Assembly (NCBI GenBank): GCA_964578535.1
Contig: CAZODI010000002.1
Coordinates: forward strand, 12,177 to 76,176
Reading direction: 5' to 3'
Source of the DNA: an uncultured Syntrophaceae bacterium
Lineage (GTDB): Bacteria > Desulfobacterota > Syntrophia > Syntrophales > PHBD01
Length of the DNA stretch: 64,000 bases
The notes under the pieces: model-generated
Told to the model about the DNA's origin: nothing
What the model saw: only the letters and a program-made list of their open reading frames with translations
The model's database searches: none
Shown: piece after piece, positions 5,053 to 44,056 of the stretch
Layout: every line of letters starts with the position of its first letter
How positions within the stretch are numbered: position 1 is the stretch's first letter
Made by a program: the position numbers and the translations under genes

Positions 5053-5392
5053 GGATCGGGGCTTGTTCCCGGGTCTGTTGGTGTTCGTTCCTCTTCGCCC
5101 CGTCACCCGATGGCGGCCTATCCTCTCCGTCCTGGGGGCGCTCCCGGCCTTTTTCATGGTTCCGGCCCCGAGCGCCCTCATCGGAAGCGCCAGTTCCTCC
5201 GTTGAGGGCCGGTCAGCGTTCCGCCTTTCCGTCCGGAAACAGGGAATCCTGCGGGAATCCGAAAATCACGGTCTGGATTAGCCTCGTTGCCGCCGCCGTC
5301 TGCGCCGCCGTGAAGTAGGCGCCGCGGATTCTGTGAACCCTGCTGCGATATTCTCTTGCATGTTCTTCTGACCAGAAGAAGACGCTCTCCCG

Positions 5393-5998
5393 TCAGAACG
5401 AGTCGATGATGCTTTCCTCCTCCAGGTTGATCAGATCCACGGCAGGCGAAAACGCGATGGGATCGCAGCCTGCTTCGTCCACCCGCCAGCGGAGATCGCT
5501 GTCGATCGAGATCTCCATGGGCCGGCGGCAGTGGGCGCATTCCGTTTGAATCGTGACCGACAGAGCCGTCCTGCGTAATTGCCCTTGCACGAAGGGCGTC
5601 GCGAATGCGTCCATCGCTCAGGCGGCGTAAATTGTCTCTCCGGTGTCGAAGGTCACGCGGTGCGGTGTCTTTTCGACAGTAACCGGGTAGGCCCAGACGA
5701 CCTCGCCCGCCTGGTTGCGGAAGAGGAAGGTCATGTGCTTTTCCAGGTCGTCCAGGATCGCATTCACCGTCCCGAGGGGCAGAGACAGGGAATCTGCAAT
5801 GTGACGGGGGGGCATGGGTCCTTCGAGGCGGGGGAGTTCCCGGACGACGAAATGGTGAACCATATTGTGCTCCCGGGTCATGAAACCGCGATGGGCCTCG
5901 AATTTTCTCGCCGCCTCGGGGAGCTTCTTTTTCCACAGAAAGGGGGGGACATCGATGACGAACCTCCACAATCCCATCATGAGCCTGTTTTTCCCCAT
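5393..5998 (-). CDS. MerB-like (alkylmercury lyase-like) protein with an in-frame TGA at 5618-5620, predicted selenocysteine
   Basis: Track ORFs 5618..5998 and 5393..5614 are in the same frame and separated only by TGA-GCG. The joined translation ...GETIYAA[TGA]AMDAFATPF...TECAHCRRPMEISI aligns by eye with MerB ...RRLYAWCALDTLIFPAL...SSHCAATGAPVSLTV. That places the TGA on catalytic Cys96 and keeps Asp99. The N-terminal winged-helix part resembles the MerB N-terminal domain. Confidence 0.6.
5573..5602 (-). promoter_or_regulatory. candidate bacterial SECIS hairpin downstream of the in-frame UGA
   Basis: mRNA reads UGA GCGAUGGACGCAUUC GCG-AC-GCCCUU-CGUGC-AAGGGC-AAUUA-CGC. It has a 6-bp GC-rich upper stem, a 5-nt apical loop containing GU and a 3-bp lower stem. 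The structure begins 15-20 nt after the UGA. Confidence 0.45.
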
Positions 5999-6063
5999 AT
6001 ATTTAACCTCCAGGTTCTATTGTCGATCCGTTCCCCGGTGATGAGGAACGGCATGCCTGTTCA

Positions 6064-6597
6064 TCATCCCCTCGACCATTCCCTGATCCGGTCGATCTCG
6101 TCGCCCGTGATTCCCAGTCCCTCGAGAAATTCCTGATGGGACAGGGGGGCTAACTTCTCGAAGGCCTTGTGCCACCTCACCAGCCCCTCGTCGTCGAGGC
6201 CCGCGGCTCTGAGCATGGCGGCCCAGCTTTCCCCGTCCAGAACGGGATAGCGATCCCGGAGCGTATCGTCGTTGAGCATGCGGATAATGACGTGCTGCTG
6301 CTCCCGGAGCTGGCCGATCTCCCTGCCCAGTTCCAGCAGCCTTTTCTCGAGGACGTCGCGCAGGCTGTCCCGGGGAGACAGCAGGATCCGGGCGATCGCG
6401 GAGAGGGACAGCCCCAGCTGGCGATACACGCAGATCGTTTCCAGCCGCCGGGCGTCCTCCTCCGTGTATCGCCGGTAGTTGGCCCGGCTCCTGCCTGCGG
6501 GATTCAGCAATCCGATGGAGTCGTAATACAGGAGCGTGCTTCGGGACAGCCCGAAGCGCCCGGCCAGCTCTCCGATGGTCATGGCGGTTTTCTTCAT
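6064..6597 (-). CDS. MerR family transcriptional regulator
   Basis: The N-terminal HTH MTIGELAGRFGLSRSTLLYYDSIGLL...YRRYTEEDARRLETICVYRQLGLSL is classic MerR. The start could be ATG 6624, 6597 or 6582. The effector domain has no Hg-binding Cys triad. Confidence 0.8.
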   Translation of the reverse strand: MKKTAMTIGELAGRFGLSRSTLLYYDSIGLLNPAGRSRANYRRYTEEDARRLETICVYRQLGLSLSAIARILLSPRDSLRDVLEKRLLELGREIGQLREQQHVIIRMLNDDTLRDRYPVLDGESWAAMLRAAGLDDEGLVRWHKAFEKLAPLSHQEFLEGLGITGDEIDRIREWSRG

Positions 6598-6654
6598 ATC
6601 CGGTTTGTCTGCATTGCGGGGCATTTTGCCATCCTCTGCGTGATGGTGATCGGG

Positions 6655-6817: not shown

Positions 6818-7732
6818 TCATCGTGCTTCCCCGCCCGGGACCGCCGCATTCCTCCGTGGTTCCTCCCCCAGGAAATCCTCGAAGTGGTACCACTGGTCCG
6901 GATGGCTGCGGGCCTCCTCCTCCAGGATCCGGGCGTAGGCCTGAACAGAATGCCGGACGGCATCATCCCGGTCCTTCCTTGAAGCGGCGTTCACGGTCCA
7001 GGGTGGGCCGACCCGGATGCGGTAGCGGCCCCCGGCCTCGCGATAGACAAAGAAGGGCAGAATCGGCGCCCCCGACAGAAGGGAGAACAGGTGCGGCGTC
7101 TCGGGGAGAAGGGTCTCGCGGCCGGCGAAGACGGCCGGGACGGATCGCTGGCTTGCGTGCCAGAGGCGGTCCCCCGTCATGGAGACCAGGCCGCCTTCGC
7201 GAAGGAAGCGGATCGCCTCAACGAGATCGAAGGGCGAAGCCGCATCGGGAGATGCCGTCACGATCCGCACGCCCCGTTCCGACAGGCTCTGCTTCTGCAT
7301 CCGCTCGATCTGCTCCCGGTGTTTCTCCCCCACGTACAGGAGAAGCTTCATGCCCTTGCCTTTCAGGAGATGGGCCGAGACCTCCCAGTTTCCCAGATGG
7401 GACATGAGCAGAACGCCCCCCCGTCCGGAGGTGACGGCCTCTTCCAGGTAGGGAAACCCCTCGCTTTCGTACTCGATGTCGCCCCGCTCCTGAAGCAGGA
7501 AGCGGTCCAGGAAGACGGAGGTGAAGTTCTGGTACTGGCGCCAGGTCAGGAGGAGGGCGCGAAGAAGGCCATGCCCCGGGAGGAGAATCCGGTAAAAACG
7601 GACGCTCCGGGCAACCCGTCCGGGGAAAAACACGAAGTAGCCGGCGGCGATAAACCAGGCGAAAAACCGGAACGCCCAGGGCCCGGCGTGACGGGTGAGG
7701 GTTGTCAGGAACCGGTAGGCGGCCGCCTTCAT
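6818..7732 (-). CDS. LpxL/HtrB-like lysophospholipid (lipid A biosynthesis-type) acyltransferase
   Basis: Translation from MKAAAYRF..., with LMSHLGNWEV (the HX4-type acyltransferase motif region). The ATGA overlap with the upstream exporter stop (7729-7732) fixes the start. It is equivalent to the APE-cluster ApeD-type gene. Confidence 0.8.
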   Translation of the reverse strand: MKAAAYRFLTTLTRHAGPWAFRFFAWFIAAGYFVFFPGRVARSVRFYRILLPGHGLLRALLLTWRQYQNFTSVFLDRFLLQERGDIEYESEGFPYLEEAVTSGRGGVLLMSHLGNWEVSAHLLKGKGMKLLLYVGEKHREQIERMQKQSLSERGVRIVTASPDAASPFDLVEAIRFLREGGLVSMTGDRLWHASQRSVPAVFAGRETLLPETPHLFSLLSGAPILPFFVYREAGGRYRIRVGPPWTVNAASRKDRDDAVRHSVQAYARILEEEARSHPDQWYHFEDFLGEEPRRNAAVPGGEAR

Positions 7733-10700
7733 GGTTCGTACTCCCGGGGTTTCCGGGCGACGAACCACCAGACCTCGCGGTCCGGCGACATGGGTTCCGG
7801 AAGGCCGACTCGCAGACCCGCGTCTTCGATCGCCTGCCGGACCTCTTCGACGGTGCGGAACCGTGCCCGGCCGCCGTGCCATTTCAGCCGCTTCTCCTCG
7901 AACCGGCGCTCCGGCGAGGGGGCTGGAAAGGACGGGACGAGGGCCCGGAGGACGAGGACCCCTCCCGGCTCCATGATCGCAGAAATTCGGGAGAGGGTCA
8001 GGCGGAGCTCCCCATCGTCGAGTATGTGGATCACGTCGAGGAAGAGCACCGCGTCGACCGGATCGGGGATGAAAGGCAGGTCCGGTGCCTTTCCCACGGC
8101 CATTCTGCCCCGGTCGCCGACGGCCCGGGCGGCGACCCGGACCCGGTCGGGATCGGGATCGAGACCGAAGACCCGGGCGCCCGGGTTGATCTCCAGGAGC
8201 CAGGACGACGGGATTCCGTATCCGCAGCCGATGTCCAGGATCGTCCTGGGATGGGGGACGAAGGAAGCCAGGCGCGGGAACATGGGATCCAGGCGCAGCT
8301 TGAAGAATACGAAGGCCCGCACATATCCCTCGATCCGGCGGTAGCGGGCGAGTACACGCCGGGCGTGCTTCTCCGATCCGGCCTCGAAGGTCTCTTCGGG
8401 AAGGGCCGCCGGCCGGTAAAGCCGCCGGAGCAGCGGCGGCACGATGGCGATGGTCCCGAGGAAGGAATAGCCGATTCCCAGGGCGAGGGCGATCCCGGCG
8501 CTGCTCAGCATGGCATGGCTTGCCAGGGCCAGGACGCCGAATCCCAGAAACGTGGTGGCGAAGGAAAGCAGGACCGACAGGCGGACGAGCGCCATGGAGG
8601 GATGCTTTTCATCGAGATACCGCTGCTGGGAGCGGACGATGTACATGGCGTAATCGGTTCCCATCCCGATGATGACGGCGGACACCATGATCGTCGGAAT
8701 GCCCGGGGGCCTCCCGATCAGGTGGAGGGTCCCCAGGGTGCAGATGAGCGAGAAGGCCGTCGGGGCCAGCGCGATGAGGGTCAGCCGGAGGTCCAGGAGA
8801 TACAGCGCCGCCACCACGAGGGTCAGGAGGCCGACGATGAGCGCCACCCGGAGAAAGCCGTCGAGGATGACCCCGCCGAGGCGCTCCGTGAATACGCCCG
8901 GGTCGAACAGCCGGGCGAGGCCGGAAGTGTGGAGGCGTTCAAAGAAGTCTCCTCCCCGGTAGGCGGGACCGGGAAGTACCGTGACAAACTGGCGCCAGGG
9001 GCCCGCTCCCGTGGACGGCGCGATTCCCAGGAGACCGTAGAGGGTGGTCGGGATCTCCACGGCACTTCCCGCCGCCGTTTCCAGGCGTCGCAGGAACGGA
9101 TCGAAGGATTGGGGACGAAAGCCCTCCACTTCCGCCGCCTCTGCCAGCCTGCGCCGGCAGGACTCTGCTCGCTCCGTCGTCCAGAAGGCCCGCCAGGCCA
9201 GCCGGTTTGCCGCGGCTCGTTCCGGCCCGGGGAAGGCCGTGGAGGCCACGAAAGCCGCCGACAGGACTCCCTTTTCGAGGTCCTCGTCCAGCAGGGCCGT
9301 CAGGCGGTCTCCCTTCTCCCGCAACTCCCGGTAGGAATTCCCTTCCGACAGCAGGTAGACCCGGTTCAGGATGTCGCCCCAGGCCCGTTTCATCTCCTCT
9401 TCCGCGGCAAGGGTCTCGGGCCGGACGGTGTTGAGGGACTTCAAGTCCACACGGAAATCGGGCCGGGCAAAAGGGAGGAGGGCCAGGCAAAGGACCAGGG
9501 CCGCCCAGGGCTTCCAGGCGGGATCGGCGGAGGACAGCTTCTCGGAGAGGCGCCGGAGCCAGGGGGTTCCCTCCCGGGCGGACGCGGGCACGACGGGGAA
9601 GAGGAACGGATAGACCAGGTGGACGAAGGCGAAGGTGAAAATGACGCCTAGGGCGGCGAAGGCGCCGAGCTGGGCCAGGGCCGGGAATCCGCTCAGGAAC
9701 AGGAAGGAGAAGCTGACAGCCGTCGTCAGCATTGCAAGGAGTCCCAGGGACCAGACTTCTCGTGTCGTGTCGAGCCCCCGGGTCTCGCGGGTCCGGTCGA
9801 GGAACAGGAGATAGGTGATCCCGTAATCGACGGTAAAGGAGATGATGGCGCCGCCGAAGCCGATGGCGAGAACGGAGATCTCTGACCGGAAGAGGGACAG
9901 GACGAAATAGGCCAGGGCCGTTCCCATGACAGCGGGAAACAGGGCGAGCAGTCCCAGGAGAGGGCGCGGGAATCCGATCAGCAGGAGGATGGCTATCGCC
10001 ATGGTGGAAAAGACCATGGCCCGGCGGGTGTCCGTTTTGGCGGCGTTTTCATTGTCCAGGGCGGCCCGGTAGGCCCCGACAGGGGTCAGGACGAGCCGGG
10101 GCTTGCCGGTCCAGGTCCGGTTCAGCTCCGCCTGGATGTCCGCGAAGAGACGGTCCGCCTGCCTGGCGAAGTCTGTGGCGGTGGCCGATGTCTTTGGCTC
10201 CGCGACGATAAGACAGCGGGAGCTGTCGGCGGAGAGCAGGACGTCACCCGACGGCCGGGCGCCCTTCGCCGGCTCCAGGTGTGCCATCCGGCCGAGGATG
10301 AGGAAGCGCAGCCCCAGAGGATCCGAGGCCAGCCAGCGGGCCTGGCCGATGCCTTCCAGGCCTTGGATCATCAGGGCCTGCCTGTGGACCGCGTCACGGA
10401 CGGACGGCCCCTCCAGGAGCGGGGCCACGTTCCGTCGGAGATCCCGCTCCGAGAACAGAAAGGGCAGGTTTTCCACGATCCCGTCCACCAGTTCCGGGAA
10501 AGCCCCACTTCCGCGTCCAGCCCGACCCGGCGAAAGAGCCCGCTGTCCCTCATTTTTTTTACAACAAGAGCCCCCCCTTCCTGGAGCGCCCTGGGATCCA
10601 CCGGGTCGCACCGCAGATCCGCAACGATGCGGTCCTGCATGGGATGGCTCTTCAGGACGGCCCCGGCATCCGCCAGGACGGGGTCTCCGGCGGGGAGGGC

Positions 10701-10817
10701 GTTGAGGATGTCTGTGTCCACGCCCATGCGGGTCTTCCCGACCAGGAAAAGGGCCGCCACGACGATCACGACGGCCAGGGCAAGACTCCAGCGCAACATG
10801 GGAGGGGATTTTTTCAT
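7729..10817 (-). CDS. MMPL/RND-type exporter fused to a C-terminal class I SAM methyltransferase; reading frame broken by an apparent 1-nt indel at 10503-10506
   Basis: The N-terminus (TM helix plus periplasmic start, MKKSPPMLRWSLALAVVIVVAALFLVGK...) lies in ORF 10371..10817. The rest (two 6-TM bundles, then ...ILDIGCGYGIPSSWLL...VLFLDVIHIL... methyltransferase) lies in ORF 7729..11016. The frames meet at the minus-strand GTGGGGC. One extra G would give ...GLDAEVGAFPELVDGIVENLPF... uninterrupted. Confidence 0.7.
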
Positions 10818-11431
10818 GGGCGGACTGTGGGGCGGGTTTTTTTCGGCTCGATTTCCAGGAGGAACCGGTTCTCCTTACGGTACTGGATCGGCCGGACGAT
10901 GTAATCCCTGTCCGGCACCAGTTCAACGGCCGCCCGGATGGACCCGGAAGCCGGGTCACGGCTGATCCGGACCTGGCGGACCAGGGGACCCTTGCCGTCC
11001 TGCTGGGCCGGCACACCCGGGTCGATGGAGGCGTTGGGGACGTCGAAATAGATCCGGGGCTTCTCTCCCGGAATCGTCCTGAGGACGGGCCGGTGGGGAC
11101 GGCTGAACGTGAAGGAGACCCGTTCCCGCCCCTTCGGGTCCGCCTCGCATCCGACGCTCTTCAGGAGAAGGGGGGCGGCTTTTGGCCTGTCTCCCGGGGG
11201 ACTGCCCTTCCCCGCTTCGGATTTCTTCAATGCCTCTGTCTGTCCGTCGTTCCAGCCGGCCTGCGGCGCCGGTTTCGCATGTCCCGTTTTCACGGCCGGC
11301 GGACTGTCCGCGGCGGAGACAGGCGCACTGCCCGGCGGTTTTGCAGCATCCGGAACGGTTCGTCCGGATTCGCCGAAGGCCTGGACGGCCGCGAACAGAA
11401 AAAGGATCAGGAAAAGGCCGATGCGGTTCAT
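10814..11431 (-). CDS. secreted AMIN domain-containing protein
   Basis: Signal peptide MNRIGLFLILFLFAAVQAFG, then a Pro/Ala-rich linker. The C-terminal segment ERVSFTFSRPHRPVLRTIPGEKPRIYFDVPNASI...VRQVRIS...IRAAVELV fits the AMIN pattern. Its stop overlaps the exporter ATG. Confidence 0.6.
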   Translation of the reverse strand: MNRIGLFLILFLFAAVQAFGESGRTVPDAAKPPGSAPVSAADSPPAVKTGHAKPAPQAGWNDGQTEALKKSEAGKGSPPGDRPKAAPLLLKSVGCEADPKGRERVSFTFSRPHRPVLRTIPGEKPRIYFDVPNASIDPGVPAQQDGKGPLVRQVRISRDPASGSIRAAVELVPDRDYIVRPIQYRKENRFLLEIEPKKTRPTVRP

Positions 11432-19561: not shown

Positions 19562-20854
19562 TCAACCCTTTGTTGTCCCTTCCTCTCCGGACCTCTCCCC
19601 GCGGCGGCCGAACCTGGATTCCATCAGGTCCCGCCTGCGCCGGCGGTACGTGCCGTCTCGATGCTCCTTTTCGCTCACCTTTTTCAGGAGCTTGAACATC
19701 TTGTAGGTCTGGGGCTCGTCCCGGTAAAACGTGTCCCAGGCGTAGTGGAACAGCTCCTGGAGCTTCTCCGGCGACAGGTTCCGGGGCTGGAAGACGACCT
19801 TGTCGGCGGTGTAGTCGTTCCAGTCGTAGGACAGGATCCTCCCCTCCCGATGGAGGTCGTCGAACGTCCGGGTGTGGGGGAACGGAGTCAGGACGGTGAA
19901 TTCCGCCAGGTCCAGCTCGATCTCCATCAGGAAGTCGATGAGCCGCCGGATGCTGTCTTCCGTGTGATTGTCCAGGCCCAGGAGAATCGTCCCCTCGACG
20001 CCGATTCCGTGGTCGTGGTAGCGGCGGATGCGGTCCCGGATCGTGTCTGAGGTGTCGAAGACGGCCTGGTAGACGTACCAGGCCCCCGCCCGGGCGGCCA
20101 GATCCAGGATCTCCGGGTCGTCCTCGATGGGGTGGCTGCACCAGCTCTTCTTGAGGGGGATCATGGCCCGGAAGAGGTCCTTTTCCCACCGGCTGTCCTG
20201 GGCGAGGGAGTTGTCCACCACGAACAGGCGGTTGTTGTCGATGCCGGCAATCTCCTCGACCACCCGGTCGATGGGCCGGGGCCGGAACTGCCGTCCTCCA
20301 AGGAAAGAGACGCAGCAGGGGTAGCAGTTGAACCTGCAGCCCCGGGAGGCGTGGACCAGGTCCACCATCTGGACGCCCTTGTAATTGTACAGGTCCCGCT
20401 TGAGGATATCCCGCCGGGCCGGGCCGATCCACTCCGTCGGGGGACGATTGTCGAAGAAGTCATAGATTTTCTTGAGTTTTCCCTCCAGAAAGTCCCCGAT
20501 CACCTCCTCCATCCGTCCCTCTGCTTCGCCAAGGAAAATCGAGTCGGCGTGCCCGGCCGCCTCCTCGGCATGGAGCATGGTTCCGATCCCGCCGCAGAGG
20601 ACGGGAATCCCCCGGCGGCGGTACTCGTCGGCTATCTCCCATCCCCGCTTCACCTGGCTGGTGAGCATCATGGAGATGCCGACCAGGTCGGCCCTCTCCT
20701 CCAGGTCGAGGGGCTCCACGTTTTCGTCGGTGAAGGAGACCTCGACGCCCGGCGGCAGGGCCGCGGCGAAGACCACCGGCCCATGGGGCGGCAGGTGGAA
20801 TTCCGTCTGTCCTTCCAGTTTTCTCCAGCGGGGGTAGATCAGTTTCAATTTCAT
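19562..20854 (-). CDS. B12-binding domain radical SAM protein (class B)
   Basis: An N-terminal Rossmann-like B12-binding region (DLVGISMMLTS...) is followed by ASRGCRFNCYPC (CxxxCxxC). Confidence 0.85.
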   Translation of the reverse strand: MKLKLIYPRWRKLEGQTEFHLPPHGPVVFAAALPPGVEVSFTDENVEPLDLEERADLVGISMMLTSQVKRGWEIADEYRRRGIPVLCGGIGTMLHAEEAAGHADSIFLGEAEGRMEEVIGDFLEGKLKKIYDFFDNRPPTEWIGPARRDILKRDLYNYKGVQMVDLVHASRGCRFNCYPCCVSFLGGRQFRPRPIDRVVEEIAGIDNNRLFVVDNSLAQDSRWEKDLFRAMIPLKKSWCSHPIEDDPEILDLAARAGAWYVYQAVFDTSDTIRDRIRRYHDHGIGVEGTILLGLDNHTEDSIRRLIDFLMEIELDLAEFTVLTPFPHTRTFDDLHREGRILSYDWNDYTADKVVFQPRNLSPEKLQELFHYAWDTFYRDEPQTYKMFKLLKKVSEKEHRDGTYRRRRRDLMESRFGRRGERSGEEGTTKG

Positions 20855-20888
20855 GAAGCGAATTCCTTAAACGGTTCGGTTCGTTGCG

Positions 20889-27339: not shown

Positions 27340-27609
27340 ATGAAAGGATCCCTGGACGAGACCTTCAAGCGCGAACTCAAGGAACTGATCATCGAGGAGT
27401 GCGACCTGGCGGACCGCTTCCACCCCGGGGACATCCGGGACGACGAGCCCCTCTTCGGGCGGGATTCCCGCATCGGCCTGGATTCCATCGACGCCCTGCA
27501 GATCTCCATCGCCGTACAGCGGTATAACGTCAACATCACCGACAGCAAGGTCATGCGGCGCGTCATGACCTCCATCAACGCCTTTGCCGATTACATCCGG
27601 CCGGAGTAG
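27340..27609 (+). CDS. acyl carrier protein
   Basis: 89 aa with GLDSIDALQ, the phosphopantetheine Ser motif. GAAGGA lies upstream of ATG 27340. Confidence 0.8.
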   Translation: MKGSLDETFKRELKELIIEECDLADRFHPGDIRDDEPLFGRDSRIGLDSIDALQISIAVQRYNVNITDSKVMRRVMTSINAFADYIRPE

Positions 27610-27613
27610 CTCT

Positions 27614-28777
27614 GTGGAAAAAAGGGCCTGCATCCGGGGAGGCGCCCTGTCGTGCTCCCTCGGGACGGAGATGGACGCCGTCATCGGTGCCGTTCGCGGC
27701 GGGCGGACGCCCCTGGAGATCGTGCACCTGGATCTGGCGGGCCTCCCCTATGGTCGCCCCTACTACCGGCTTCCCTTCCGGGACGGAAGGCGCGACGCCG
27801 ATGTGGAGCGTTTCTTCTATGACGTTCTCTTCGATACGGTCGCCCGGGCCGTTGCCGGCGCCGGCTGGACGGCCCGAGATCTGGAGGGGGCGGCGTTCCT
27901 CTTCGGGTCCACCTCCATCGACATCCCCATCTACGAGGCCGCCTATGCCCGCTCGGAGGAGAACGGGATTCATTTCTTCGTCCACGCGTCCCTCGGCTAC
28001 GGCTCCATCGCCCGCGCCGCCGCGGACCGGTTCGGCATCGGCGGACCCTGCACGACCTTCACCACGGCCTGCACCTCCTCGGCCAATGCCGTCCTGTATG
28101 GGGCCGGCCTGATCGAGACGGGCGTCGTCGACCGGGCCGTGGCGGTCGGGTACGATCTCTACAACGCCACGGGCTTTTACGGCTTCGAGTCGCTCCGCCT
28201 CATGGCGCCGGAGCGCTACCGGCCCTTCGATGCGGACCGGGACGGGATCATCATGGGGGAGGGGTGCGGTGTCGTTCTTCTGGAGCGGGGCGGACCGGGG
28301 GACGGCGGGTTCGTTTTCCGCGGCGGCGCCAACCGGTGCGATCCCTTCAACGTGACGACCCACGAGGAGAACGGGACGGTGATCGCCGCCACCATGAGGC
28401 AGGCCCTCGCCGACGCCGGCGTGGGGGCGGACGGGATCGACGCCGTCAAGGCCCACGCCACGGGAAGCGACCTCAACGACCGGACGGAGTGCGCGGGCAT
28501 GCGGGCCGTCTTCGGCGACCGCCTGCCCCCCGTGACGGCCGTGAAGCCTTATGTGGGCCATACCGTCGGCGCCTCCGGGGCGATCGAGCTCCTGCTGGTC
28601 ACCGAGTCCCTGCGGCGGGGCTTTCTGCCCGCTGTGCCGGGATTCGAAAAGGAGGACCCGGAACTGGGCGTCAGCCCCCTGCGGGAGCCCCTGACGATGG
28701 CAAGGGGCACGGTCATGCTCAACTTCTTCGGGTTCGGCGGCAACTGCACGTCCCTGATCGTTTCGTCGGGAGGGTGA
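27614..28777 (+). CDS. beta-ketoacyl-ACP synthase (KS, catalytic Cys-His-His present)
   Basis: TACTSS (Cys), KAHATGS (His) and GHTVGASG (His) are present. GTG 27614 lies directly after the ACP stop. Confidence 0.85.
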   Translation: MEKRACIRGGALSCSLGTEMDAVIGAVRGGRTPLEIVHLDLAGLPYGRPYYRLPFRDGRRDADVERFFYDVLFDTVARAVAGAGWTARDLEGAAFLFGSTSIDIPIYEAAYARSEENGIHFFVHASLGYGSIARAAADRFGIGGPCTTFTTACTSSANAVLYGAGLIETGVVDRAVAVGYDLYNATGFYGFESLRLMAPERYRPFDADRDGIIMGEGCGVVLLERGGPGDGGFVFRGGANRCDPFNVTTHEENGTVIAATMRQALADAGVGADGIDAVKAHATGSDLNDRTECAGMRAVFGDRLPPVTAVKPYVGHTVGASGAIELLLVTESLRRGFLPAVPGFEKEDPELGVSPLREPLTMARGTVMLNFFGFGGNCTSLIVSSGG

Positions 28778-28779
28778 TC

Positions 28780-29655
28780 ATGTACATCCACGGCGCCTCG
28801 GCCTTCGTTACCGAACCGGGAACCCCGCCGCAGATCCTCAAGGAGGAGCTGGCCCGGGAATCCAAGGCATATTTCCGCCGGGTCAACCGCTACATCCTCC
28901 TGTCCCTCATCGGCGCCCACCGCTGCGTCGCGGGCCGGGCCGTACCGGCGGACACGGCGGTGTACCTGACGACGGAGCGAGGCAACTTAGGCGAGACGGA
29001 GTCGGTGCTCAGGCAGATCTTCCGCCAGCATTCCCTGCCCATGCCCTACAACTTCATCAACACCATGTCGAACACGGCGTCCTTCTACGTCGCCCAGGGG
29101 CTGGGCGCCGCTGGCCCGAACCTCTCGATCTCGGACCGCCTCCTGTCCTTCGAGCGGGGAATCACCCTGCTGACGGTGGATTTCCTGCGGGGCAGGGTCC
29201 GGAGCGCCCTTCTCGGCGGGGTGGACGAGGCCAATCCCTCGGCGGTTCACTTCGAGCGGACCTACGGGATCCCCGCCGGATCGGTACGGGGCGTCGAGGG
29301 GAGTGCCTGGCTCTGGGTGACGGACGAGCCGGAGGGGGCCCTGGGCCGGATCCTGGGGACCGGATCGGTCCGGGACGCCGGAGCAGGCGCGGCCTGGCTG
29401 AAGGAGAGGACCGGCAGGTCTCCCGTCATCGGCTACGGCCTCTCCGTGCCCGCGGCGGACCGGGAGGCCTGGAGCCGTGCCGTCGGGGCGGTGGACGAGT
29501 TCGACTATCTTTCCGCGCACGGCTGGTTCGATTCCGCCACGGCCCTGGGGATCAGCCGGTTTGTACAGGAGTGTCCGGGCCGCCTCCTCCTTCACGTGAC
29601 CTGCGACCGTCCGGGCCGCTACACCCTGGCGGCCGTGGAGACCGCCGCGAAATAG
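28780..29655 (+). CDS. KS-like chain-length-factor type protein (no active-site Cys)
   Basis: A thiolase-fold-like sequence (NFINTMSNTASFYVAQGLG) sits where KS carries its Cys. It is immediately downstream of KS, matching the APE KS:CLF pair arrangement. Confidence 0.7.
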   Translation: MYIHGASAFVTEPGTPPQILKEELARESKAYFRRVNRYILLSLIGAHRCVAGRAVPADTAVYLTTERGNLGETESVLRQIFRQHSLPMPYNFINTMSNTASFYVAQGLGAAGPNLSISDRLLSFERGITLLTVDFLRGRVRSALLGGVDEANPSAVHFERTYGIPAGSVRGVEGSAWLWVTDEPEGALGRILGTGSVRDAGAGAAWLKERTGRSPVIGYGLSVPAADREAWSRAVGAVDEFDYLSAHGWFDSATALGISRFVQECPGRLLLHVTCDRPGRYTLAAVETAAK

Positions 29656-29724
29656 CCCGGTCCCCCGCCGGGCCACGCGACCCCGGCAGGGGATGCTTCC
29701 TGGGTGCTGCCTGTACAGAGGAGC

Positions 29725-30561
29725 TCAGTTCGCCGGCTTTACGGCGGACACCCGGATGCTCACCGCCGTGGCGGCGAGATCCGACAACTCCTCCCGGGAA
29801 AGCCCCAGATCGCGGACCATGGTCTGGACCGTGGGATCGTTAAGCAGGAAGTCCACCGGGAAGACGTTTTGCCCGACGACCTCAATGCCCGTGAATCCCG
29901 CTGCGGCGATCGCTCCCAGGTAATCGGCTTTCCGTGCCGCCCCGGCCACGCAGCCGATCCAGGCGGTGAGTGACGCCTTGATCGCCTCCGGAAGATCCTT
30001 CGTCAGGACGATGTCCGAGACCATCAGCCGCCCCCCCGGTCTGAGGATCCGGAAGGCCTCCCGGAATACCTGCTGCTTGTCGGGCGAGAGGTTGATGACG
30101 CAGTTCGAGATGATTGCGTCGGCCTCCCCGTCCGCCACAGGCAGGTGCTCGATCTCGCCCAGGCGGAAGGCCACGTTTTCGTAGCCCCCCTTCCGGGCGT
30201 TTTCCCGCGCCTTCTCGATCATCTCCGGTGTCATGTCCACGCCGATGACCCGCCCCGTGGGTCCCACCTGCCGGGACGCCAGGAAGGCGTCGAAGCCCGC
30301 TCCGGACCCGAGGTCCACGACCGTCTCCCCTTCCCGGAGGGAAGCCAGGGCGACGGGGTTGCCGCAGCCGAGGCCGAGGTTCGCCCCCTCCGGGACGGAG
30401 GCCAGGTCCTCATCCGAGTAGCCGACAGCCTTGCCGATTGCCGCCGCCTGCTGTGCACCTCCACAGCAACCCGCGATGGGCAGGCTGCAGCAGGAATTCC
30501 CCGTGACGGCGATCTTCCCGTACCCTTCCCGGACATTGGTCCGGATGTCTTCGTTTTTCAT
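29725..30561 (-). CDS. arsM: arsenite S-adenosylmethionine methyltransferase
   Basis: VREGYGKIA, N-terminal Cys pairs, VVDLGSGAGFD and ISNCVINLSPDK are ArsM hallmarks. Confidence 0.85.
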   Translation of the reverse strand: MKNEDIRTNVREGYGKIAVTGNSCCSLPIAGCCGGAQQAAAIGKAVGYSDEDLASVPEGANLGLGCGNPVALASLREGETVVDLGSGAGFDAFLASRQVGPTGRVIGVDMTPEMIEKARENARKGGYENVAFRLGEIEHLPVADGEADAIISNCVINLSPDKQQVFREAFRILRPGGRLMVSDIVLTKDLPEAIKASLTAWIGCVAGAARKADYLGAIAAAGFTGIEVVGQNVFPVDFLLNDPTVQTMVRDLGLSREELSDLAATAVSIRVSAVKPAN

Positions 30562-30670
30562 CGATCATCCTCCATGATTTGAATTGCAGTTTTCAGGTAT
30601 AGGGAACCCGCGGCGACATCGCTCCGGGATGCCGGTTTCACTCGATCCTGCCGTCCGCTCCTGAACGGCA

Positions 30671-30952
30671 TCAATCCGCCAGATCCCCCAGGACGGGTCC
30701 CAGGAACTCCCGGACTCCCCGGGCCAGGGCGTCCGCCTTGATCAGGGTCAGACAGCAGACTTCGCCGTCCTTCTCCCAACTGACGAGAGCCAGTTTGTCT
30801 CCCGTCCGGATGTTCGCCCGCTCCCGGATGTCCTTGGGCAGGACCATCTGTCCCCGCTCGTCGACCCCCAGAAGGGCCTCGACCCGGCAGCAACTCTTGC
30901 CGCTCCGGGACGGCGTGCAGCATTCCTTGTCACTGGTTGTCTTGTCCGTCAT
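30671..30952 (-). CDS. AbrB/MazE/SpoVT-family DNA-binding protein with three vicinal Cys pairs
   Basis: The SpoVT-AbrB core GQMVLPKDIRERANIRTGDKLALV is present. CC dipeptides occur at KECC, KSCC and EVCC. Confidence 0.7.
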   Translation of the reverse strand: MTDKTTSDKECCTPSRSGKSCCRVEALLGVDERGQMVLPKDIRERANIRTGDKLALVSWEKDGEVCCLTLIKADALARGVREFLGPVLGDLAD

Positions 30953-30971
30953 TGTTGCTCCAGAATGGATT

Positions 30972-30997
30972 GATTGTTCAGATGCGTCTGAACAATC
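30972..30997. promoter_or_regulatory. perfect 11-bp inverted repeat GATTGTTCAGA-tgcg-TCTGAACAATC (candidate operator)
   Basis: Read directly from the sequence. It begins 20 nt upstream of the AbrB-like start codon, in the divergent intergenic region. Confidence 0.45.
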
Positions 30998-31054
30998 TGA
31001 ATTATATGTATCGATCCCGGATTGTCAAGGGGGTATCGCTCCGGGTTTTTCCGT

Positions 31055-31083
31055 TTGCCAAGGGGCTGCCAAACCAGTATGAT
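31055..31083 (+). promoter_or_regulatory. candidate sigma70 promoter TTGCCA-N17-TATGAT for the radical-SAM lipid block
   Basis: Each hexamer matches its consensus at 5 of 6 positions, with a 17-nt spacer. It lies about 50 nt upstream of GTG 31135. Confidence 0.45.
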
Positions 31084-31134
31084 CCCGAAGCATTTCCATG
31101 GAGTGAACCAATTCGAAGAGACAGGTGCCGTTCC

Positions 31135-32484
31135 GTGAAAGTCCTGCTCGTTTCCCTCAACCGCCTGACAGCGCCCTACCCGGTATACCCTCTCGGGCTG
31201 GACTATGTGGCGGGGGCCATCCGCGACCGCCATCCGGTCCGGATCGTCGATCTGGCCGTCCCGGGGTCGCCGGAGGGGCTTGCTGATGAGATCCGAAGCA
31301 TGGCTCCGGACCTGGTCGGCCTGTCGATCCGCAACATCGACAACACGGATGCCTCCAATCCCCTGGATTTTGTCGAGGAGTACCGGGAGGTCGTCACCGG
31401 GATCCGCGCCGTTTTCTCCGGTCCCCTCGTGCTCGGGGGAAGCGGCTTCACGATTTTTCCGGAAGCGCTGATGTCCCGGCTCGGGGCCGATTACGGCATC
31501 GTCGGCGAGGGGGAGCGCCTCCGCCCGCTTCTGGATGCCCTGGAACAGGGCCGGGATCCGTCGGGACTGCCGGGCGTCGTCACGAAAGGCTGCGGTGCCC
31601 CGGCGCCGGCGCCCTGGGGCGGTTCCCCGGTCCGGCATTTTGAAGGATCCGCCCGCCACGTCGCGACCTATCTCGACCGCGGGGGGATGATGAACCTGGA
31701 GACGAAGCGGGGCTGTCCGCATCAATGCCTGTACTGCACCTATCCCCACATCGACGGCCGGATCCTCCGCCGGCGGGATCCGGAAGAGGTGGCGAGAGAG
31801 GCGCGAATGCTCCAGGAACGGGGAGCCCGCTTTCTCTTCCTGACCGACTCCACCTTCAACACGGACCTGTCCCATTCCCTGGATGTGGCCCGCGCTTTCC
31901 GGGAGGCCGGCCTGTCTGTCCCCTGGACGGCGTTCTTCGCCCCCTTCCAGGTGCCTCCGGATTACTGGCGGGAGTTGAAGGACGCGGGGCTCAGCCACGT
32001 CGAGTTCGGCACCGAGGCCCTCTCGGACCGGATGCTCGCCTCGTACCGGAAACCCTTCCGGACCGCCGATGTCTTCCAGTGCCATGAGGCGGCCGTGGAG
32101 GCCGGCCTTCACGTGGCCCATTACCTCCTCCTGGGCGGTCCCGGCGAGGATGCCGAGACCCTGGCGGAGACCCTGAACCGGGCCGAGGAACTGTGCAGGG
32201 CCGTGTTTTTCCTCTTCCCGGGAATCCGGATCTACCCCCACACGGGGCTGTATGATGCTGCCCTTCGCGAAGGGCGACTGCAGGCCTCGGACGACCTCCT
32301 GAAGCCCCGTTTTTATATCTCCGGAGCCTTCGGGGAAGGGGAACTGGAGCGGCGGGTGAGGAGCCGTGCCGCCGGAAGGGGCCACTGGGTCGTGGGGGCC
32401 GGCGGAGACGAGACGGCCTCCGTCGTCACCCGCCTCCACCGCCGTGGTTGGAAAGGACCGCTCTGGGAGCACCTGATCCCATGA
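31135..32484 (+). CDS. B12-binding domain radical SAM protein (lipid-cluster type)
   Basis: The N-terminal VKVLLVSLN...DLVGLSIRN is a B12-binding-like domain, followed by ETKRGCPHQCLYCTYP (CxxxCxxC). The GTG start is inferred from the conserved N-terminus. Confidence 0.85.
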   Translation: MKVLLVSLNRLTAPYPVYPLGLDYVAGAIRDRHPVRIVDLAVPGSPEGLADEIRSMAPDLVGLSIRNIDNTDASNPLDFVEEYREVVTGIRAVFSGPLVLGGSGFTIFPEALMSRLGADYGIVGEGERLRPLLDALEQGRDPSGLPGVVTKGCGAPAPAPWGGSPVRHFEGSARHVATYLDRGGMMNLETKRGCPHQCLYCTYPHIDGRILRRRDPEEVAREARMLQERGARFLFLTDSTFNTDLSHSLDVARAFREAGLSVPWTAFFAPFQVPPDYWRELKDAGLSHVEFGTEALSDRMLASYRKPFRTADVFQCHEAAVEAGLHVAHYLLLGGPGEDAETLAETLNRAEELCRAVFFLFPGIRIYPHTGLYDAALREGRLQASDDLLKPRFYISGAFGEGELERRVRSRAAGRGHWVVGAGGDETASVVTRLHRRGWKGPLWEHLIP

Positions 32485-33323
32485 AAAATGTGCCTTCGCC
32501 CTGGTCGCCGGCCCACCGGACGGGAGCCGCCTCGCTGCTGCTGGCGGCGGGGGCGGGGGCCGTACAGCCCTGGTGGGCCATCGTTCCCCTTGCGCTTTTT
32601 CTGCTCCTCTGCGGTGTCCTCCCGTTCTTTCCCCGGTCGTCGTTCTTTCTGCCTGTTCTAAGCACGGGAAATCCGGAGAAAAATTCCGTATCGCTCACCT
32701 TCGACGATGGGCCGGATCCCCTGGTCACCCCCCGCCTTCTGGAGATCCTGGCCGCGGCGAGTGTCCCGGCGGCCTTTTTTGTGACGGGAGAGCGGGCGGC
32801 CCGCCATCCGGAGCTGATCCGGGCGATCCTCGCGGCGGGACATGAAGTGGGGAACCATTCGTGGCATCACGATCCCCTGCTCATGCTCCGCCCGATGTCC
32901 GTCCTGCGGCGGGAAGTCGAGGGGGCCCAGCAGATCCTCATGGAGGCGGGGATCCGCCCCCGGGCGTTCCGTCCGCCCGTCGGGATCACGAACCCGAGGC
33001 TTCCCGCTGTCCTTCGCGGATCGGGAATGATCTGCGTCACCTTCAGCCGCCGGGGTGCCGACTGGGGAAACCGGCGCGTTCCGGGACTGGCGGGGCGCCT
33101 TCTGCGGCAAGTCCGGCCCGGCGATATCCTGCTTCTGCACGATATCTCGCCTCCCGGGCCCGGGGGAGCCGACCGGTGGCTGGCCGAGGTCGCCGATCTC
33201 CTCCGGGGGCTCCGGGAGCGGTCCCTGGGGATCGCTTTACTATCCGATCTGATTGAACAATCTGTCATGGAACGGACGACCCGTCCGGGGAAAAAAGGTT
33301 TTGCTCCCCCGGGGCAAGAGTGA
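32481..33323 (+). CDS. polysaccharide deacetylase (NodB/CE4) family protein with N-terminal TM segments
   Basis: The motifs LTFDDGP, GHEVGNHSWHH and RPP.G form the CE4 metal/catalytic set. The start overlaps the upstream stop in an ATGA. Confidence 0.85.
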   Translation: MKNVPSPWSPAHRTGAASLLLAAGAGAVQPWWAIVPLALFLLLCGVLPFFPRSSFFLPVLSTGNPEKNSVSLTFDDGPDPLVTPRLLEILAAASVPAAFFVTGERAARHPELIRAILAAGHEVGNHSWHHDPLLMLRPMSVLRREVEGAQQILMEAGIRPRAFRPPVGITNPRLPAVLRGSGMICVTFSRRGADWGNRRVPGLAGRLLRQVRPGDILLLHDISPPGPGGADRWLAEVADLLRGLRERSLGIALLSDLIEQSVMERTTRPGKKGFAPPGQE

Positions 33324-33426
33324 TATAGAATCACGCTTTCATCGGCTTCCCTGGACAGGGTTTGGGCAGGGAATCCGATTCATCGATCTCTTCAGGTTTC
33401 GGGACGTCCATTGCAGTTGGGGGAAC

Positions 33427-33810
33427 ATGACCGAATACTGGCAGGACCTGAAGCTGAAAGAGAAAGACGCATCCGGAAGGCTTGTTGCCGAGGCCCGGTT
33501 CGCCCCGGATTCACTCTGGTTTTCCGGTCACTTTCCCGGGCATCCCATCGTCCCGGGGGTGGCGCTGCTGTACCTGGTGGCGGAGGTTCTCCGCCGGGGC
33601 GAAGCTGGAGGAGAGCGTGTGATCGTGAAATCCATCCGGAGGGTTCGCTTCCGCCAGCCGGCTTATCCGGGTGACAACCTGACCGTCATCGTTTCCCCCG
33701 ACGAGGGGAGGACGGAGGGCGCATACCTGTTCCGCCTTCTCTCGGAGGGGGAAACGGTCTGCAGCGGATCCATCGGGACACGCCGCGACCGGGGCGGGAA
33801 CGGCTGCTGA
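33427..33810 (+). CDS. FabZ/FabA-like hotdog 3-hydroxyacyl-ACP dehydratase
   Basis: FSGHFPGHPIVPGVALLYLVAEV is the FabZ catalytic His motif. Confidence 0.75.
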   Translation: MTEYWQDLKLKEKDASGRLVAEARFAPDSLWFSGHFPGHPIVPGVALLYLVAEVLRRGEAGGERVIVKSIRRVRFRQPAYPGDNLTVIVSPDEGRTEGAYLFRLLSEGETVCSGSIGTRRDRGGNGC

Positions 33811-33839
33811 GAATACCGAATCGTCGAGGAGGAAGATTC

Positions 33840-34115
33840 ATGTCTGACGTCAAGGACATCGAACAGCATATTCTTCGCATCGCCCAGATCGTCATCGACG
33901 AGCTGAGGCTGGAGGACGTCACGAAGGAGACCTTCGATCCCGACCTGGATCTTGTGGATGAACTGGGGATCGACAGCATGGACCTGGCGACCGTAGCACT
34001 TGTCCTCCAGGACGAATACGGCGTGAGCATCGATGAGGACGATTATCCCAAGCTGAAAACCCTCCGGCTGATTGCGGAATATCTTCTGGCCAGGCTTCAG
34101 GAAAAGGCTGCCTGA
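33840..34115 (+). CDS. acyl carrier protein
   Basis: 91 aa with LGIDSMDLATVAL. Confidence 0.85.
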   Translation: MSDVKDIEQHILRIAQIVIDELRLEDVTKETFDPDLDLVDELGIDSMDLATVALVLQDEYGVSIDEDDYPKLKTLRLIAEYLLARLQEKAA

Positions 34116-34142
34116 TGCCGGCGATGGGCAACGATTCCGGTA

Positions 34143-35237
34143 ATGGAGGAGCCGTTGACGAATCGAACCGCCCCGGCGGAAAAAACAGAAGGAAAATGGA
34201 AGTTCGGCGATCTTCTTCGTGACGAGCAGGTCCGGGACCGGTGGGAGAAGGTCCGGAAGTACTTCTTCCTGCGGGAATCCACCTATGACATGACCAACCG
34301 CTGCAACATCCGGTGCGACGGCTGCTACTATTACGAGGGGGAAAAACAGTTCGCCCCGGAAAACCGGGATCCCGGCGCCTGGCGGGAACGGATGCAAAAG
34401 GAGAAGGAGCGGGGCATCACGTACGTGGTTCTGGCCGGCGCCGAACCCTCCCTGGTTCCCGAGCTTCTCGAAACCTGCTTCGAGGTCATGCCCTTAGGCA
34501 GCATTGCCACCAACGGATTCCGGCTCATCCCCTCCGCGATCGGCTACAAAATCCATATCTCCGTCTGGGGAAACGACGAGACGAGCCGGCGGGTCCGCAA
34601 CGCCGCCAACCTCCTGGAAAGGCAGCTCGACAACTACGACGGGGATCCCCGGGCGGTCTTCGTTTACACCTTCACGAGACAGAATATCCGGGAAATCGCC
34701 GAAGTGTCGGAACGGATCGCCGGCCGGAACGGAAAGCTGACCTTCAACGTCTTTTCCGCTCCCGTCGGTTACAAGGGTCCCCTCCGGCATGACCATTCCT
34801 CCCTGGAGGAAACACGCCGGGCGATGCTGGAGACCATGGCGCGCCACCCGGCATCCGTGCTGTTTTCGAATTACAGCGCCATGGCCCATACGCACGGGCT
34901 GGGGCTGCATGCCCTGTACGGCTGCTCCTATCCCCGCCGGAACGCCTCCACGGACATCGGCCTCGGGCGCTCCTTCCGGCAGTACCGGGCCGATCTGACC
35001 TGGGACCGGAGCGTCGCCTGCTGCGTTCCCGACACGGACTGCGACGACTGCCGCCACTATGCCGCCGGAAGCGCCGTGGTGACGGCCCGCCTGTTCCGGC
35101 ATGCCTCCGACCCCGATACGTTCCGCTCCTGGCTGGATTACGTGGACACGTACCTGGCGGTGTGGGTCATGGGTTACGAGAAGGGGGAGAATCTCTGCGA
35201 CCGCCTGGTGGATCCGCCGGGATTTTCCATGAAATAG
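34143..35237 (+). CDS. radical SAM protein (non-B12; paralog of 35915..36913)
   Basis: YDMTNRCNIRCDGCYY (CxxxCxxC) and LAGAEPSL are present. A C-terminal Cys cluster ACCVPDTDCDDCRHYAA is also present. Confidence 0.8.
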   Translation: MEEPLTNRTAPAEKTEGKWKFGDLLRDEQVRDRWEKVRKYFFLRESTYDMTNRCNIRCDGCYYYEGEKQFAPENRDPGAWRERMQKEKERGITYVVLAGAEPSLVPELLETCFEVMPLGSIATNGFRLIPSAIGYKIHISVWGNDETSRRVRNAANLLERQLDNYDGDPRAVFVYTFTRQNIREIAEVSERIAGRNGKLTFNVFSAPVGYKGPLRHDHSSLEETRRAMLETMARHPASVLFSNYSAMAHTHGLGLHALYGCSYPRRNASTDIGLGRSFRQYRADLTWDRSVACCVPDTDCDDCRHYAAGSAVVTARLFRHASDPDTFRSWLDYVDTYLAVWVMGYEKGENLCDRLVDPPGFSMK

Positions 35238-35276
35238 AGACCCCGGGACAACCGGGACCGAGAGAAAGGATGGACC

Positions 35277-35912
35277 ATGAAACCGAATTCCATGAAGACC
35301 TGGAAAGCCGGAGCCGCTCTTTTCGTTGCGATTCTGTTTCTCGCCGGATGCGGGGCCGCCGGGGGCGTCAAGGTCGCCGTCCAGCAGGATAAATACAACC
35401 CCGGATTCCGGGCCTCCGACGCGGGGCGGCTCAAGGGCAAGCGGATCGCCCTGGCCTCCTTCATCAACCGGGCGGACAACACGAAGACCTGGAACTTCTA
35501 CAGCCCCGACAAAAAGCGGGTCTATGAGACCTCGACGCCGCTGGAGTCGTTCTTCTGGGAGTGCTACAGCAAGGCCTTCCGGCATGCCGGCGCCCGGATC
35601 GTGGACTACCAGGGGGGCGCCTACCATGGCCCCGGGCCCTGGTGGTGGGGCGGGCCCCAGCCGGCAGGCGTTGTCGCCCCGAAGGGCGTTCCCGAAATCC
35701 AGCTGGTGCTGACCTCCGTCACGGACCAGGAGGTGCGTTTCCAGGTTTACGTCTTCCGGGACGGCGTCGAGAAATTACGGAAGGACTATGTGGCGACGAT
35801 GTCGCCGGCGGCGTCCCAGGACGTGAAGGACCTGGAGAAGCGCGCCTATGAACTGGTCGACCAGACCTTCACGACCCTGGTCCGGGATCGTGATTTTCAG
35901 AGGGCCCTGTAG
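35277..35912 (+). CDS. lipoprotein of unknown function
   Basis: Signal peptide with lipobox FLAGC. I recognise no domain. It lies between the two paralogous radical SAM genes. Confidence 0.55.
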   Translation: MKPNSMKTWKAGAALFVAILFLAGCGAAGGVKVAVQQDKYNPGFRASDAGRLKGKRIALASFINRADNTKTWNFYSPDKKRVYETSTPLESFFWECYSKAFRHAGARIVDYQGGAYHGPGPWWWGGPQPAGVVAPKGVPEIQLVLTSVTDQEVRFQVYVFRDGVEKLRKDYVATMSPAASQDVKDLEKRAYELVDQTFTTLVRDRDFQRAL

Positions 35913-35914
35913 GC

Positions 35915-36913: not shown

Positions 36914-36950
36914 TGGCCCGCCGAACGCCTTTGTGAATCGTAAGGACGGA

Positions 36951-38204: not shown

Positions 38205-38205
38205 A

Positions 38206-39471: not shown

Positions 39472-39482
39472 AGAGAAGAACG

Positions 39483-39503
39483 GCGCCGGGGCGGTCCCGG
39501 CGC
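39483..39503 (+). other. GC-rich intercistronic hairpin (8-bp stem GCGCCGGG/CCCGGCGC, 5-nt loop), no U-tract
   Basis: Read directly from the sequence. It begins 12 nt after the KS stop, inside the co-directional block. Confidence 0.3.
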
Positions 39504-39552
39504 AACCGTCGGGAGACAACGATGCGAATGATCGATCACGGAACAGCTTGAC

Positions 39553-40029
39553 ATGAAACCGAAACCCTTTCTCCCGGAAGCCCTCCCGGATGCCCGTTTC
39601 GTCCGGGACCGGACGACGGGTCAGGCCTGGCACCGCTGCTCCAACCGGACCCTGTACGCCGATACGGACCGCTCCGCCGTGGTCTACCACGCCAACTACC
39701 TCCGGTATTTCGAGATGGGCCGGGCGTCCCTGATGCGCGACGCCGCCTACCCGTACCGGGAAATCGAGGAGAGCGGCTTCGTCTATCCCATTATCGATCT
39801 CGCTGTGCAATTCTACCAGCCGCTGCGCTATGACGATCCCATGTGGATCCACACCCGGCCCGGCGAGCTGGAGCGGGTCCGCCTCCGGTTCGACTACGTC
39901 ATTACGCATGCCGAGACGGGGGTCCTGGTCTGCAGGGGCCACACCCGCCACTGTGCCCTGAACCGGTCGGGCAGGCCCGTGGCCGTGGACCCCAAGACGG
40001 TCCACCTCTGGAAGAGCTTCCCGCCATGA
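39553..40029 (+). CDS. YbgC/4HBT-type acyl-CoA/ACP thioesterase
   Basis: YADTDRSAVVYHANYLRYFEMGR is the 4HBT catalytic Asp region. 158 aa. Confidence 0.8.
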   Translation: MKPKPFLPEALPDARFVRDRTTGQAWHRCSNRTLYADTDRSAVVYHANYLRYFEMGRASLMRDAAYPYREIEESGFVYPIIDLAVQFYQPLRYDDPMWIHTRPGELERVRLRFDYVITHAETGVLVCRGHTRHCALNRSGRPVAVDPKTVHLWKSFPP

Positions 40030-42561: not shown

Positions 42562-42583
42562 TTCCGCCTCCCGGACGGTGCAG

Positions 42584-44043: not shown

Positions 44044-44056
44044 CAGGAGATGCACG

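Follow-up and report, generated by a model that had tools for sequence, protein, structure and literature searches.

The locus described here raises the question of whether a reading frame interrupted by TGA codons encodes one protein and, if so, what kind of protein it is. It lies on the minus strand of a 64,000-nucleotide stretch of contig CAZODI010000002.1, which is called the window below; all coordinates are positions in this window. Analysis of the reading frame, the relatives and the RNA indicated that the gene very probably encodes a genuine MerB-fold selenoprotein with two selenocysteine (Sec) residues, as judged from sequence comparison. The original prediction had described two open reading frames (ORFs) in one frame, 5998..5621 and 5614..5396 (minus strand), split by the TGA at 5620-5618, and this arrangement was confirmed. 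It had also given a product of about 201 amino acids, which was too short: the end at 5395-5393 is another in-frame TGA, and conserved protein sequence (RESVFFWSEEHAREYR...) was found downstream of it. After this second TGA the frame continued for 59 further codons, starting RESVFFWSEEHAREYRSRVHRIRGAYFT..., to a third TGA at 5215-5213, giving a true length of 261 amino acids. The assignment of Sec to the column of MerB Cys96 stood, whereas a further Sec codon in the Cys159 column, the hairpin that follows it and the 59-residue C-terminal segment had been missed. The parts of the gene are as follows.

5213..5998, minus strand: predicted coding sequence of a MerB-like double selenoprotein, 261 amino acids plus stop (786 nucleotides), with the ATG at 5998-5996, Sec codons 127 and 202 and the true stop TGA at 5215-5213 (from the translation and the conserved three-segment frame)
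5618..5620, minus strand: UGA codon 127 (UGA-1), putative selenocysteine 1, at the MerB Cys96 position in YAA-U-AMD (profile alignment to MerB structures)
5609..5611, minus strand: GAC codon 130, Asp, aligned to the MerB proton donor Asp99 and invariant in the alignment of 18 full-length relatives
5528..5539, minus strand: C154-A-H-C157 motif in invariant columns, with C154 at MerB Cys117 and C157 without a MerB counterpart
5393..5395, minus strand: UGA codon 202 (UGA-2), putative selenocysteine 2, at the MerB Cys159 position in IIDSF-U-RESVFFWSEEHA (alignment to MerB SFC159C and MerB2 GTC)
6007..6011, minus strand: ribosome-binding site GGAGG, 8 nucleotides upstream of the ATG (read from the sequence)

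About 1000 relatives came from a protein search; the majority were 125 amino acids long and ended exactly at ...YAA. The codons at the two sites were read in 110 loci, including 23 from representative genomes and 80 of at least 555 metagenome loci; the genome loci were metagenome-assembled genomes (MAGs) of Desulfobacterota (including Syntrophaceae and Desulfomonilaceae), Nitrospirota, Chloroflexota and Acidobacteriota. The three-segment frame of the MerB-like gene was kept in all 110. At site 1, the Cys96 column, 106 loci carried TGA, three carried TGT for Cys (L001 and L002/L003) and one carried TGG for Trp (L004), while at site 2, the Cys159 column, TGA was present in 109/109 readable loci. 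An identical 786-nucleotide gene with both TGAs had been assembled independently in five other samples. Because of this identity, and because the arrangement recurred in more than 100 loci, the TGAs are neither a product of chance nor a sequencing error. The gene P0002, the representative of a 90%-identity cluster and 95% identical, is located on the HGW-Deltaproteobacteria-19 MAG, and a further member of this cluster (NPU83516.1) on a Syntrophaceae MAG. Among the loci, L005 is the nearest relative, with 87% of nucleotides identical across 10 kb; against it, the synonymous to non-synonymous codon differences were 17:6, 6:4 and 9:5 in segments 1, 2 and 3, respectively. The homologs were not truly split into two genes at the first TGA, and the reading of this codon as Sec, as originally proposed, held up on several lines: the frame was conserved past the TGA in 106/110 loci, Cys (TGT) homologs were present (L001, L002 and L110), the hairpin downstream showed suppressed synonymous variation, and the protein matched the MerB fold.

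Distant relatives with Cys/Sec, Ser/Cys or degenerate sites were obtained only by an exhaustive profile search; a k-mer protein search with the C-terminal half gave 14 matches. Among the relatives from the profile search, L110, read on the DNA, had Cys at site 1 and TGA at site 2. In L111 (261-1013; protein P0133), site 1 was Ser and site 2 was a TGC codon for Cys, and of the two hairpins described below the first was decayed and the second nearly intact. Cys was also found at site 2 of P0138. Since Cys was seen at each column in some relatives, Sec and Cys alternate at both sites. In the degenerate paralogs P0137, P0140, P0146, P0192 and P0211, both ligands and the Asp were gone, and these sequences together with L111 suggest that the catalytic site may have been lost repeatedly. 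Some loci showed individual features of their own. L004 (651-653) had a genuine TGG at site 1, followed by Gly, and kept TGA at site 2; a subgroup of five loci (L028, L029, L068, L070 and L072) had U-G-I-D in place of U-A-x-D; L015 carried a second, paralogous copy about 1.5 kb downstream of the main copy; and L026 (6001-6330) contained an N-terminal frameshift, which may reflect a pseudogene or an assembly error.

In bacteria, SelB binds a hairpin located 3' of the UGA, and this arrangement recruits SelB and Sec-tRNA(Sec), so that the UGA is read as Sec. Hairpins resembling such a selenocysteine insertion sequence (SECIS) were found downstream of both UGAs.

5581..5597, minus strand: SECIS-like hairpin 1, G-CCCUU / loop CGUGC / AAGGG-C, starting 20 nucleotides after UGA-1 (RNAalifold consensus)
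5363..5380, minus strand: SECIS-like hairpin 2, UUCUUCU / loop GGUC / AGAAGAA, starting 12 nucleotides after UGA-2

Hairpin 1, at 5597-5581 and 20 nucleotides past UGA-1, agreed with the earlier description of a hairpin with GU in its loop 15-20 nucleotides past the UGA. The RNAalifold analysis of hairpin 1 in 102 sequences revealed that 97.9% of the cells were paired, with double changes from G-C to U-A in 5 sequences and 11 U.G wobbles. For hairpin 2 (101 sequences), 99.7% of the cells were paired, and compensatory changes from U-A to C-G occurred at two pairs, in 7 and 2 sequences. The covariation of hairpin 2 was reached by 0/500 shuffles, and the slid controls gave 0-1. One of its compensatory changes coupled the replacement of Trp by Arg with a synonymous change from TCA to TCG. 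An extension of the lower stem of hairpin 2 (columns 11-14 with 35-38) was no better than shuffles and was dropped. The synonymous entropy of the hairpin 1 codons for P, F, V, Q and G was 0.08, 0, 0, 0.49 and 0.14 bits, and that of the hairpin 2 codons for F, F, S, E and E was 0, 0, 0.45, 0.20 and 0.41 bits; equally conserved residues elsewhere in the gene showed about 0.85-1.0 bits at 2-fold and about 1.5-2.0 bits at 4-fold codons. This suppressed synonymous variation is the strongest recoding signal in the sequences, and it reflects selection on the RNA itself, in the region in which the SECIS elements of bacteria are found.

MerB binds Hg through Cys96 and Cys159, and its Asp99 supplies the proton to the leaving carbon. 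With both TGAs translated as Cys, the window protein scored 57.8 bits against the Pfam MerB family (PF03243), for which the cut-off is 27, and covered model positions 2-119 of 126; the 201-residue version with Cys at the first TGA scored 42.4 bits against the same cut-off and covered positions 2-55. A profile built from 18 full-length relatives was searched against PDB sequences, and only MerB proteins were found (MerB2 5c17, E=6e-7; R831b MerB 1s6l/3f0p, E=6e-6). In this alignment, YAA-U127-A-x-D130 fell on YAW-C96-A-L-D99 of MerB, TE-C154-AHC on SH-C117-AAT, and DAF-U202-RKSVFFWSEEHA on QSF-C159-CHVHFFASVPTA. The equivalence of IYAA-[TGA]-AMD with LYAW-C96-ALD99, and that of the later segment ECAHCRRPMEISI with MerB SHCAATGAPVSLTV, in which C154 falls on Cys117, had both been proposed before and were reproduced here; the TGA stands in the catalytic Cys column, where some homologs have Cys (TGT). 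All three columns of the MerB triad Cys96/Asp99/Cys159 were therefore aligned, as U127, D130 and U202, with both Cys columns occupied by UGA (Sec), a residue that is chemically analogous but different. The fold was examined in the AlphaFold model of the homolog P0001, which is 61% identical and has Trp placeholders at both Sec sites. This model (predicted local distance difference test, pLDDT, 90.3; predicted template modelling score, pTM, 0.88) gave 11 top matches in the PDB that were all MerB or MerB2, with E values down to 5e-11, and the next match had E=0.07. Template modelling (TM) scores to MerB/MerB2, normalised by target length, were 0.57-0.77, and those to ten crystal structures were 0.69-0.77. 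The window protein is placed in the MerB superfamily at the Pfam level, and not with MerB proper or with SaoL, the MerB-like selenoprotein compared below.

These results suggest a mechanism for the protein. Each hairpin would recruit SelB and Sec-tRNA(Sec), both UGAs would be read as Sec, and the ribosome would terminate at the third TGA (5215-5213). Together with Asp130, the two selenolates would then make up a MerB-type site, in which an organometal cation such as CH3Hg+ might be captured on selenium, its carbon protonated and the hydrocarbon released. A selenolate, with a lower pKa and a far stronger affinity for Hg, would be well suited to a trace substrate in anoxic sediments. A passage of PMC10114901 cites work in which selenoamino acids demethylate methylmercury chemically. 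For the explanation as a whole, namely a 261-residue MerB-fold protein in which Cys96 and Cys159 are replaced by Sec and Asp99 is kept as D130, we estimate a probability of roughly 0.85. Its parts differ in strength. By analogy with MerB, the chances that the protein is actually a carbon-metal lyase seem about even, and Hg as the physiological metal is a tentative proposal that we would rate below even odds.

Several observations weigh against this explanation. When the hairpins of the window were folded as single sequences, they were unexceptional compared with shuffles (z = -0.57 for hairpin 1 and -0.90 for hairpin 2); the case for the hairpins therefore rests on the comparison across loci. 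Hairpin 1 contributed little covariation because it is almost invariant, and searches of Rfam at gathering and permissive thresholds returned no match to SECIS or another relevant family. The fold was predicted on the homolog P0001 with Trp at both Sec sites and not on the window protein, and the NCBIfam MerB equivalogs NF009710 and NF033555 were far from passed (48.4 bits vs 193 and 41.3 bits vs 200, respectively). Among the approximately 30 ORFs scanned in the 64-kb window, no selA, selB, selC or selD was found, nor did the window contain a tRNA or another selenoprotein candidate with an in-frame TGA. The lack of sel genes and tRNA is uninformative for a piece of 64 kb, and Sec decoding in the source genome is putative. 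Against the lyase activity in particular, no merA, merT or merP was found near the gene in the window, and mer genes were not among the recurring neighbours of the 110 loci; a bis-selenolate site would also give up Hg(II) only with difficulty, and no MerA is encoded nearby.

The alternative that survives best accepts a real selenoprotein and denies that it is a lyase. In this view the two selenolates, possibly acting with the invariant CxxC, would bind Hg(II), CH3Hg+ or another soft metal with very high affinity, as a trap or chaperone, or would form a diselenide or selenenylsulfide redox centre. Such a role would fit the lack of merA, merT and merP to take the Hg(II) product, and the extra invariant Cys157 makes a CxxC that is missing in MerB. 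Relatives without both ligands (P0137, P0140, P0146 and others), and Ser at site 1 in P0133, imply that the scaffold tolerates non-catalytic states, and most prokaryotic selenoproteins are redox proteins according to the 2026 inventory. The proton-donor Asp, however, was invariant in the forms with Sec at both sites, although it would be needless for pure binding or redox chemistry, and the whole catalytic geometry of MerB was kept. We consider a trap or redox role unlikely, and favour the MerB-type site over it.

A reassigned genetic code, by which the host organisms would translate TGA as Trp or Gly (code 4 or 25), appears far less probable. About 20 "full-length" proteins in the databases do carry Trp at both sites, but the underlying codons are TGA, which allows no translation of these proteins under the standard code. 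Public protein sets with Trp at both Sec sites include those for L028 (243-1058), L029 (164-916), P0001, P0003, P0005, P0008 and others, and in the database protein of L028 even the terminal TGA was read through. The Trp-bearing entries are an annotation artefact of gene callers that applied a code with TGA=Trp to short contigs. The final stop of the relatives was TGA in 40/94, TAA in 31 and TAG in 23, and TGA also ends the window gene; since TGA still ends translation in 40 of these 94 relatives, the code is not reassigned. Conserved Trp residues within the gene use TGG, and Desulfobacterota, Nitrospirota, Chloroflexota and Acidobacteriota use the standard genetic code. That the TGAs are true stops, in a decayed MerB-like pseudogene or in two or three separate small genes, is just as improbable: public annotation does split the gene into hypothetical proteins of 126 (or 125) and 73 amino acids, but both TGAs stand at identical columns in more than 100 loci of four phyla with protein conservation past each, the third segment lacks a separate start codon, relatives have Cys codons at both columns, synonymous differences exceed non-synonymous ones in all three segments, and selection acts on the hairpins as RNA.

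The two-Sec MerB-like gene is directly preceded by a regulator gene.

6064..6624, minus strand: MerR-family transcription regulator, directly upstream with a 65-nucleotide gap (Pfam MerR_1, 64 bits)

This protein scored under every NCBIfam metal-sensor cut-off, and it has a conserved C-terminal domain and a single conserved Cys. Because it has only one Cys, it cannot hold the three metal-binding cysteines of the Hg-sensing MerR. Orthologs of this type adjoined the MerB-like gene in 8/26 genome loci and in 11 loci of the 110-locus set, and the regulator is a probable co-transcribed or regulating partner of the gene. Directly upstream and on the same strand, in metagenome loci such as L058:2429-2941, L035:2335-2967 and L008:1883-2422, there was either a MarR-type regulator (11 loci) or a MerR-type regulator (11 loci). 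A small 4HBT-like thioesterase adjoined the gene in 7 loci, and these three, the MerR-type regulator, the MarR-type regulator and the thioesterase, were the only neighbours that recurred across loci. The usual arrangement, a stand-alone gene behind a MerR- or MarR-type regulator, suggests an inducible role in detoxification.

In the window, one flank of the gene consisted of a flavin reductase, a racemase, a permease and a family-5 solute-binding protein. The other flank, beyond the MerR-family gene, contained an acyltransferase and then a fusion of an MMPL-type membrane transporter with a C-terminal S-adenosylmethionine (SAM) methyltransferase (1095 amino acids, 7729-11016, minus strand), which was conserved in L005. 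Further away, genes for B12-binding radical SAM proteins (30784-32481, 45042-47018 and 19565-20866), smaller radical SAM genes (34116-35234 and 35894-36910) and four ketoacyl-synthase genes (27569-28774, 36855-38201, 38146-39468 and 40960-42558) were found. The dense radical SAM/ketoacyl-synthase cluster at 27569-47018, with 19565-20866 in addition, looks like an unusual biosynthetic locus of the lipid or polyketide type. A SAM methyltransferase at 29728-30564 (minus strand; Methyltransf_31, 141 bits) is possibly an arsenite or metalloid methyltransferase. Genes for a PP2C phosphatase and an FHA-domain protein at 58551-60077 (plus strand) share one frame with a single TGA (59373-59375) between them; they are apparently ordinary adjacent genes and not a selenoprotein.

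To our knowledge, MerB is the only enzyme known to break the carbon-mercury bond of methylmercury, and we know of no gene yet identified for the degradation of methylmercury independently of the mer operon in anoxic environments. Nor do we know of a described enzyme in which both metal ligands are selenocysteine. Members of the family occurred on at least 555 contigs from metagenomes, and the MAGs that carried them belonged to four phyla that are typical of anoxic sediments. This double-Sec MerB-fold family is a concrete, testable candidate for organometal turnover where methylmercury is made, it extends the link between selenium and mercury biochemistry that was proposed for SaoL and HgcA, and it adds a two-Sec family to the selenoproteome. 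The family also exposes a systematic annotation error, by which the gene is split into hypothetical proteins or mistranslated with Trp at both sites. A broader proposal, by analogy with MerB, is that strictly anaerobic bacteria of sediments could have in this family a carbon-metal lyase dedicated to that task, with a bis-selenolate site, and that it could lie behind mer-operon-independent degradation of methylmercury or other organometals in anoxic environments; we regard this proposal as doubtful.

Three known systems can be compared with the gene and its protein. The SECIS of Escherichia coli fdhF is a short stem-loop about 11 nucleotides past the UGA, whose apical loop contains GGUC and exposes G and U. 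Hairpin 2 resembles it in starting 12 nucleotides after its UGA and in having a GGUC loop on a stem of 7 base pairs, and hairpin 1 has GU in its 5-nucleotide loop; both hairpins are located within the coding sequence, directly downstream of their respective UGAs. Unlike the fdhF element, both hairpins are shorter than the full element and lack an evident bulged U, and hairpin 1 begins as far as 20 nucleotides after the UGA.

The window protein shares with MerB (EC 4.99.1.2; PDB 3F0P and 1S6L; MerB2 5C17) the predicted fold (TM about 0.75), a score above the Pfam threshold, and the aligned Cys96/Asp99/Cys159 and Cys117 columns. The two differ in that both Cys ligands would be Sec in the window protein, which is about 20% identical to MerB and has an extra N-terminal extension of about 40 amino acids and the extra Cys157. 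The hosts of the window family also belong to obligate-anaerobe lineages, and the gene is not accompanied by merA, merT or merP.

The "selenocysteine-assisted organometallic lyase" SaoL (NF040728) is a MerB-like protein that occurs in Clostridioides difficile and further anaerobes (Haft & Gwadz 2022, bioRxiv 10.1101/2022.07.06.499078). It has Cys99, Asp102 and a C161-U162 dipeptide, it marks a nine-gene SAO locus, and its distribution is skewed heavily toward Firmicutes (bioRxiv 10.1101/2022.07.06.499078). The window protein resembles SaoL in its MerB fold, its occurrence in strict anaerobes, the Sec at the MerB Cys159 position and the retained Asp; in both cases database entries are truncated at the UGA, a mer operon is lacking and the function is deduced indirectly. 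In contrast to the single Sec of SaoL, which lies in a CU dipeptide and is combined with Cys at the Cys96 position, the window protein has F-U-R without a Cys before the Sec, and a second Sec at the Cys96 position. Its score against the SaoL model was 42.4 bits, with a cut-off of 140, and its central residues 73-167 alone aligned. The nine-gene SAO neighbourhood (saoTECXLBPAD) was represented by no gene in the window and by none recurring across loci, where the recurring neighbour was instead a MerR- or MarR-type regulator. The window family, unlike SaoL, was found in MAGs of Desulfobacterota, Nitrospirota, Chloroflexota and Acidobacteriota. In the prokaryotic selenoprotein inventories of 2022 and 2026, SaoL is the sole MerB-like member and has one Sec, and Sec at the Cys96 position is not among the 119 families of the 2026 inventory. 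A MerB-like selenoprotein is thus a kind of protein already known through SaoL; what is new here is the double-Sec active site, a possible bearing on the turnover of organomercury under anaerobic conditions, the stand-alone family and its breadth in uncultured anaerobes.

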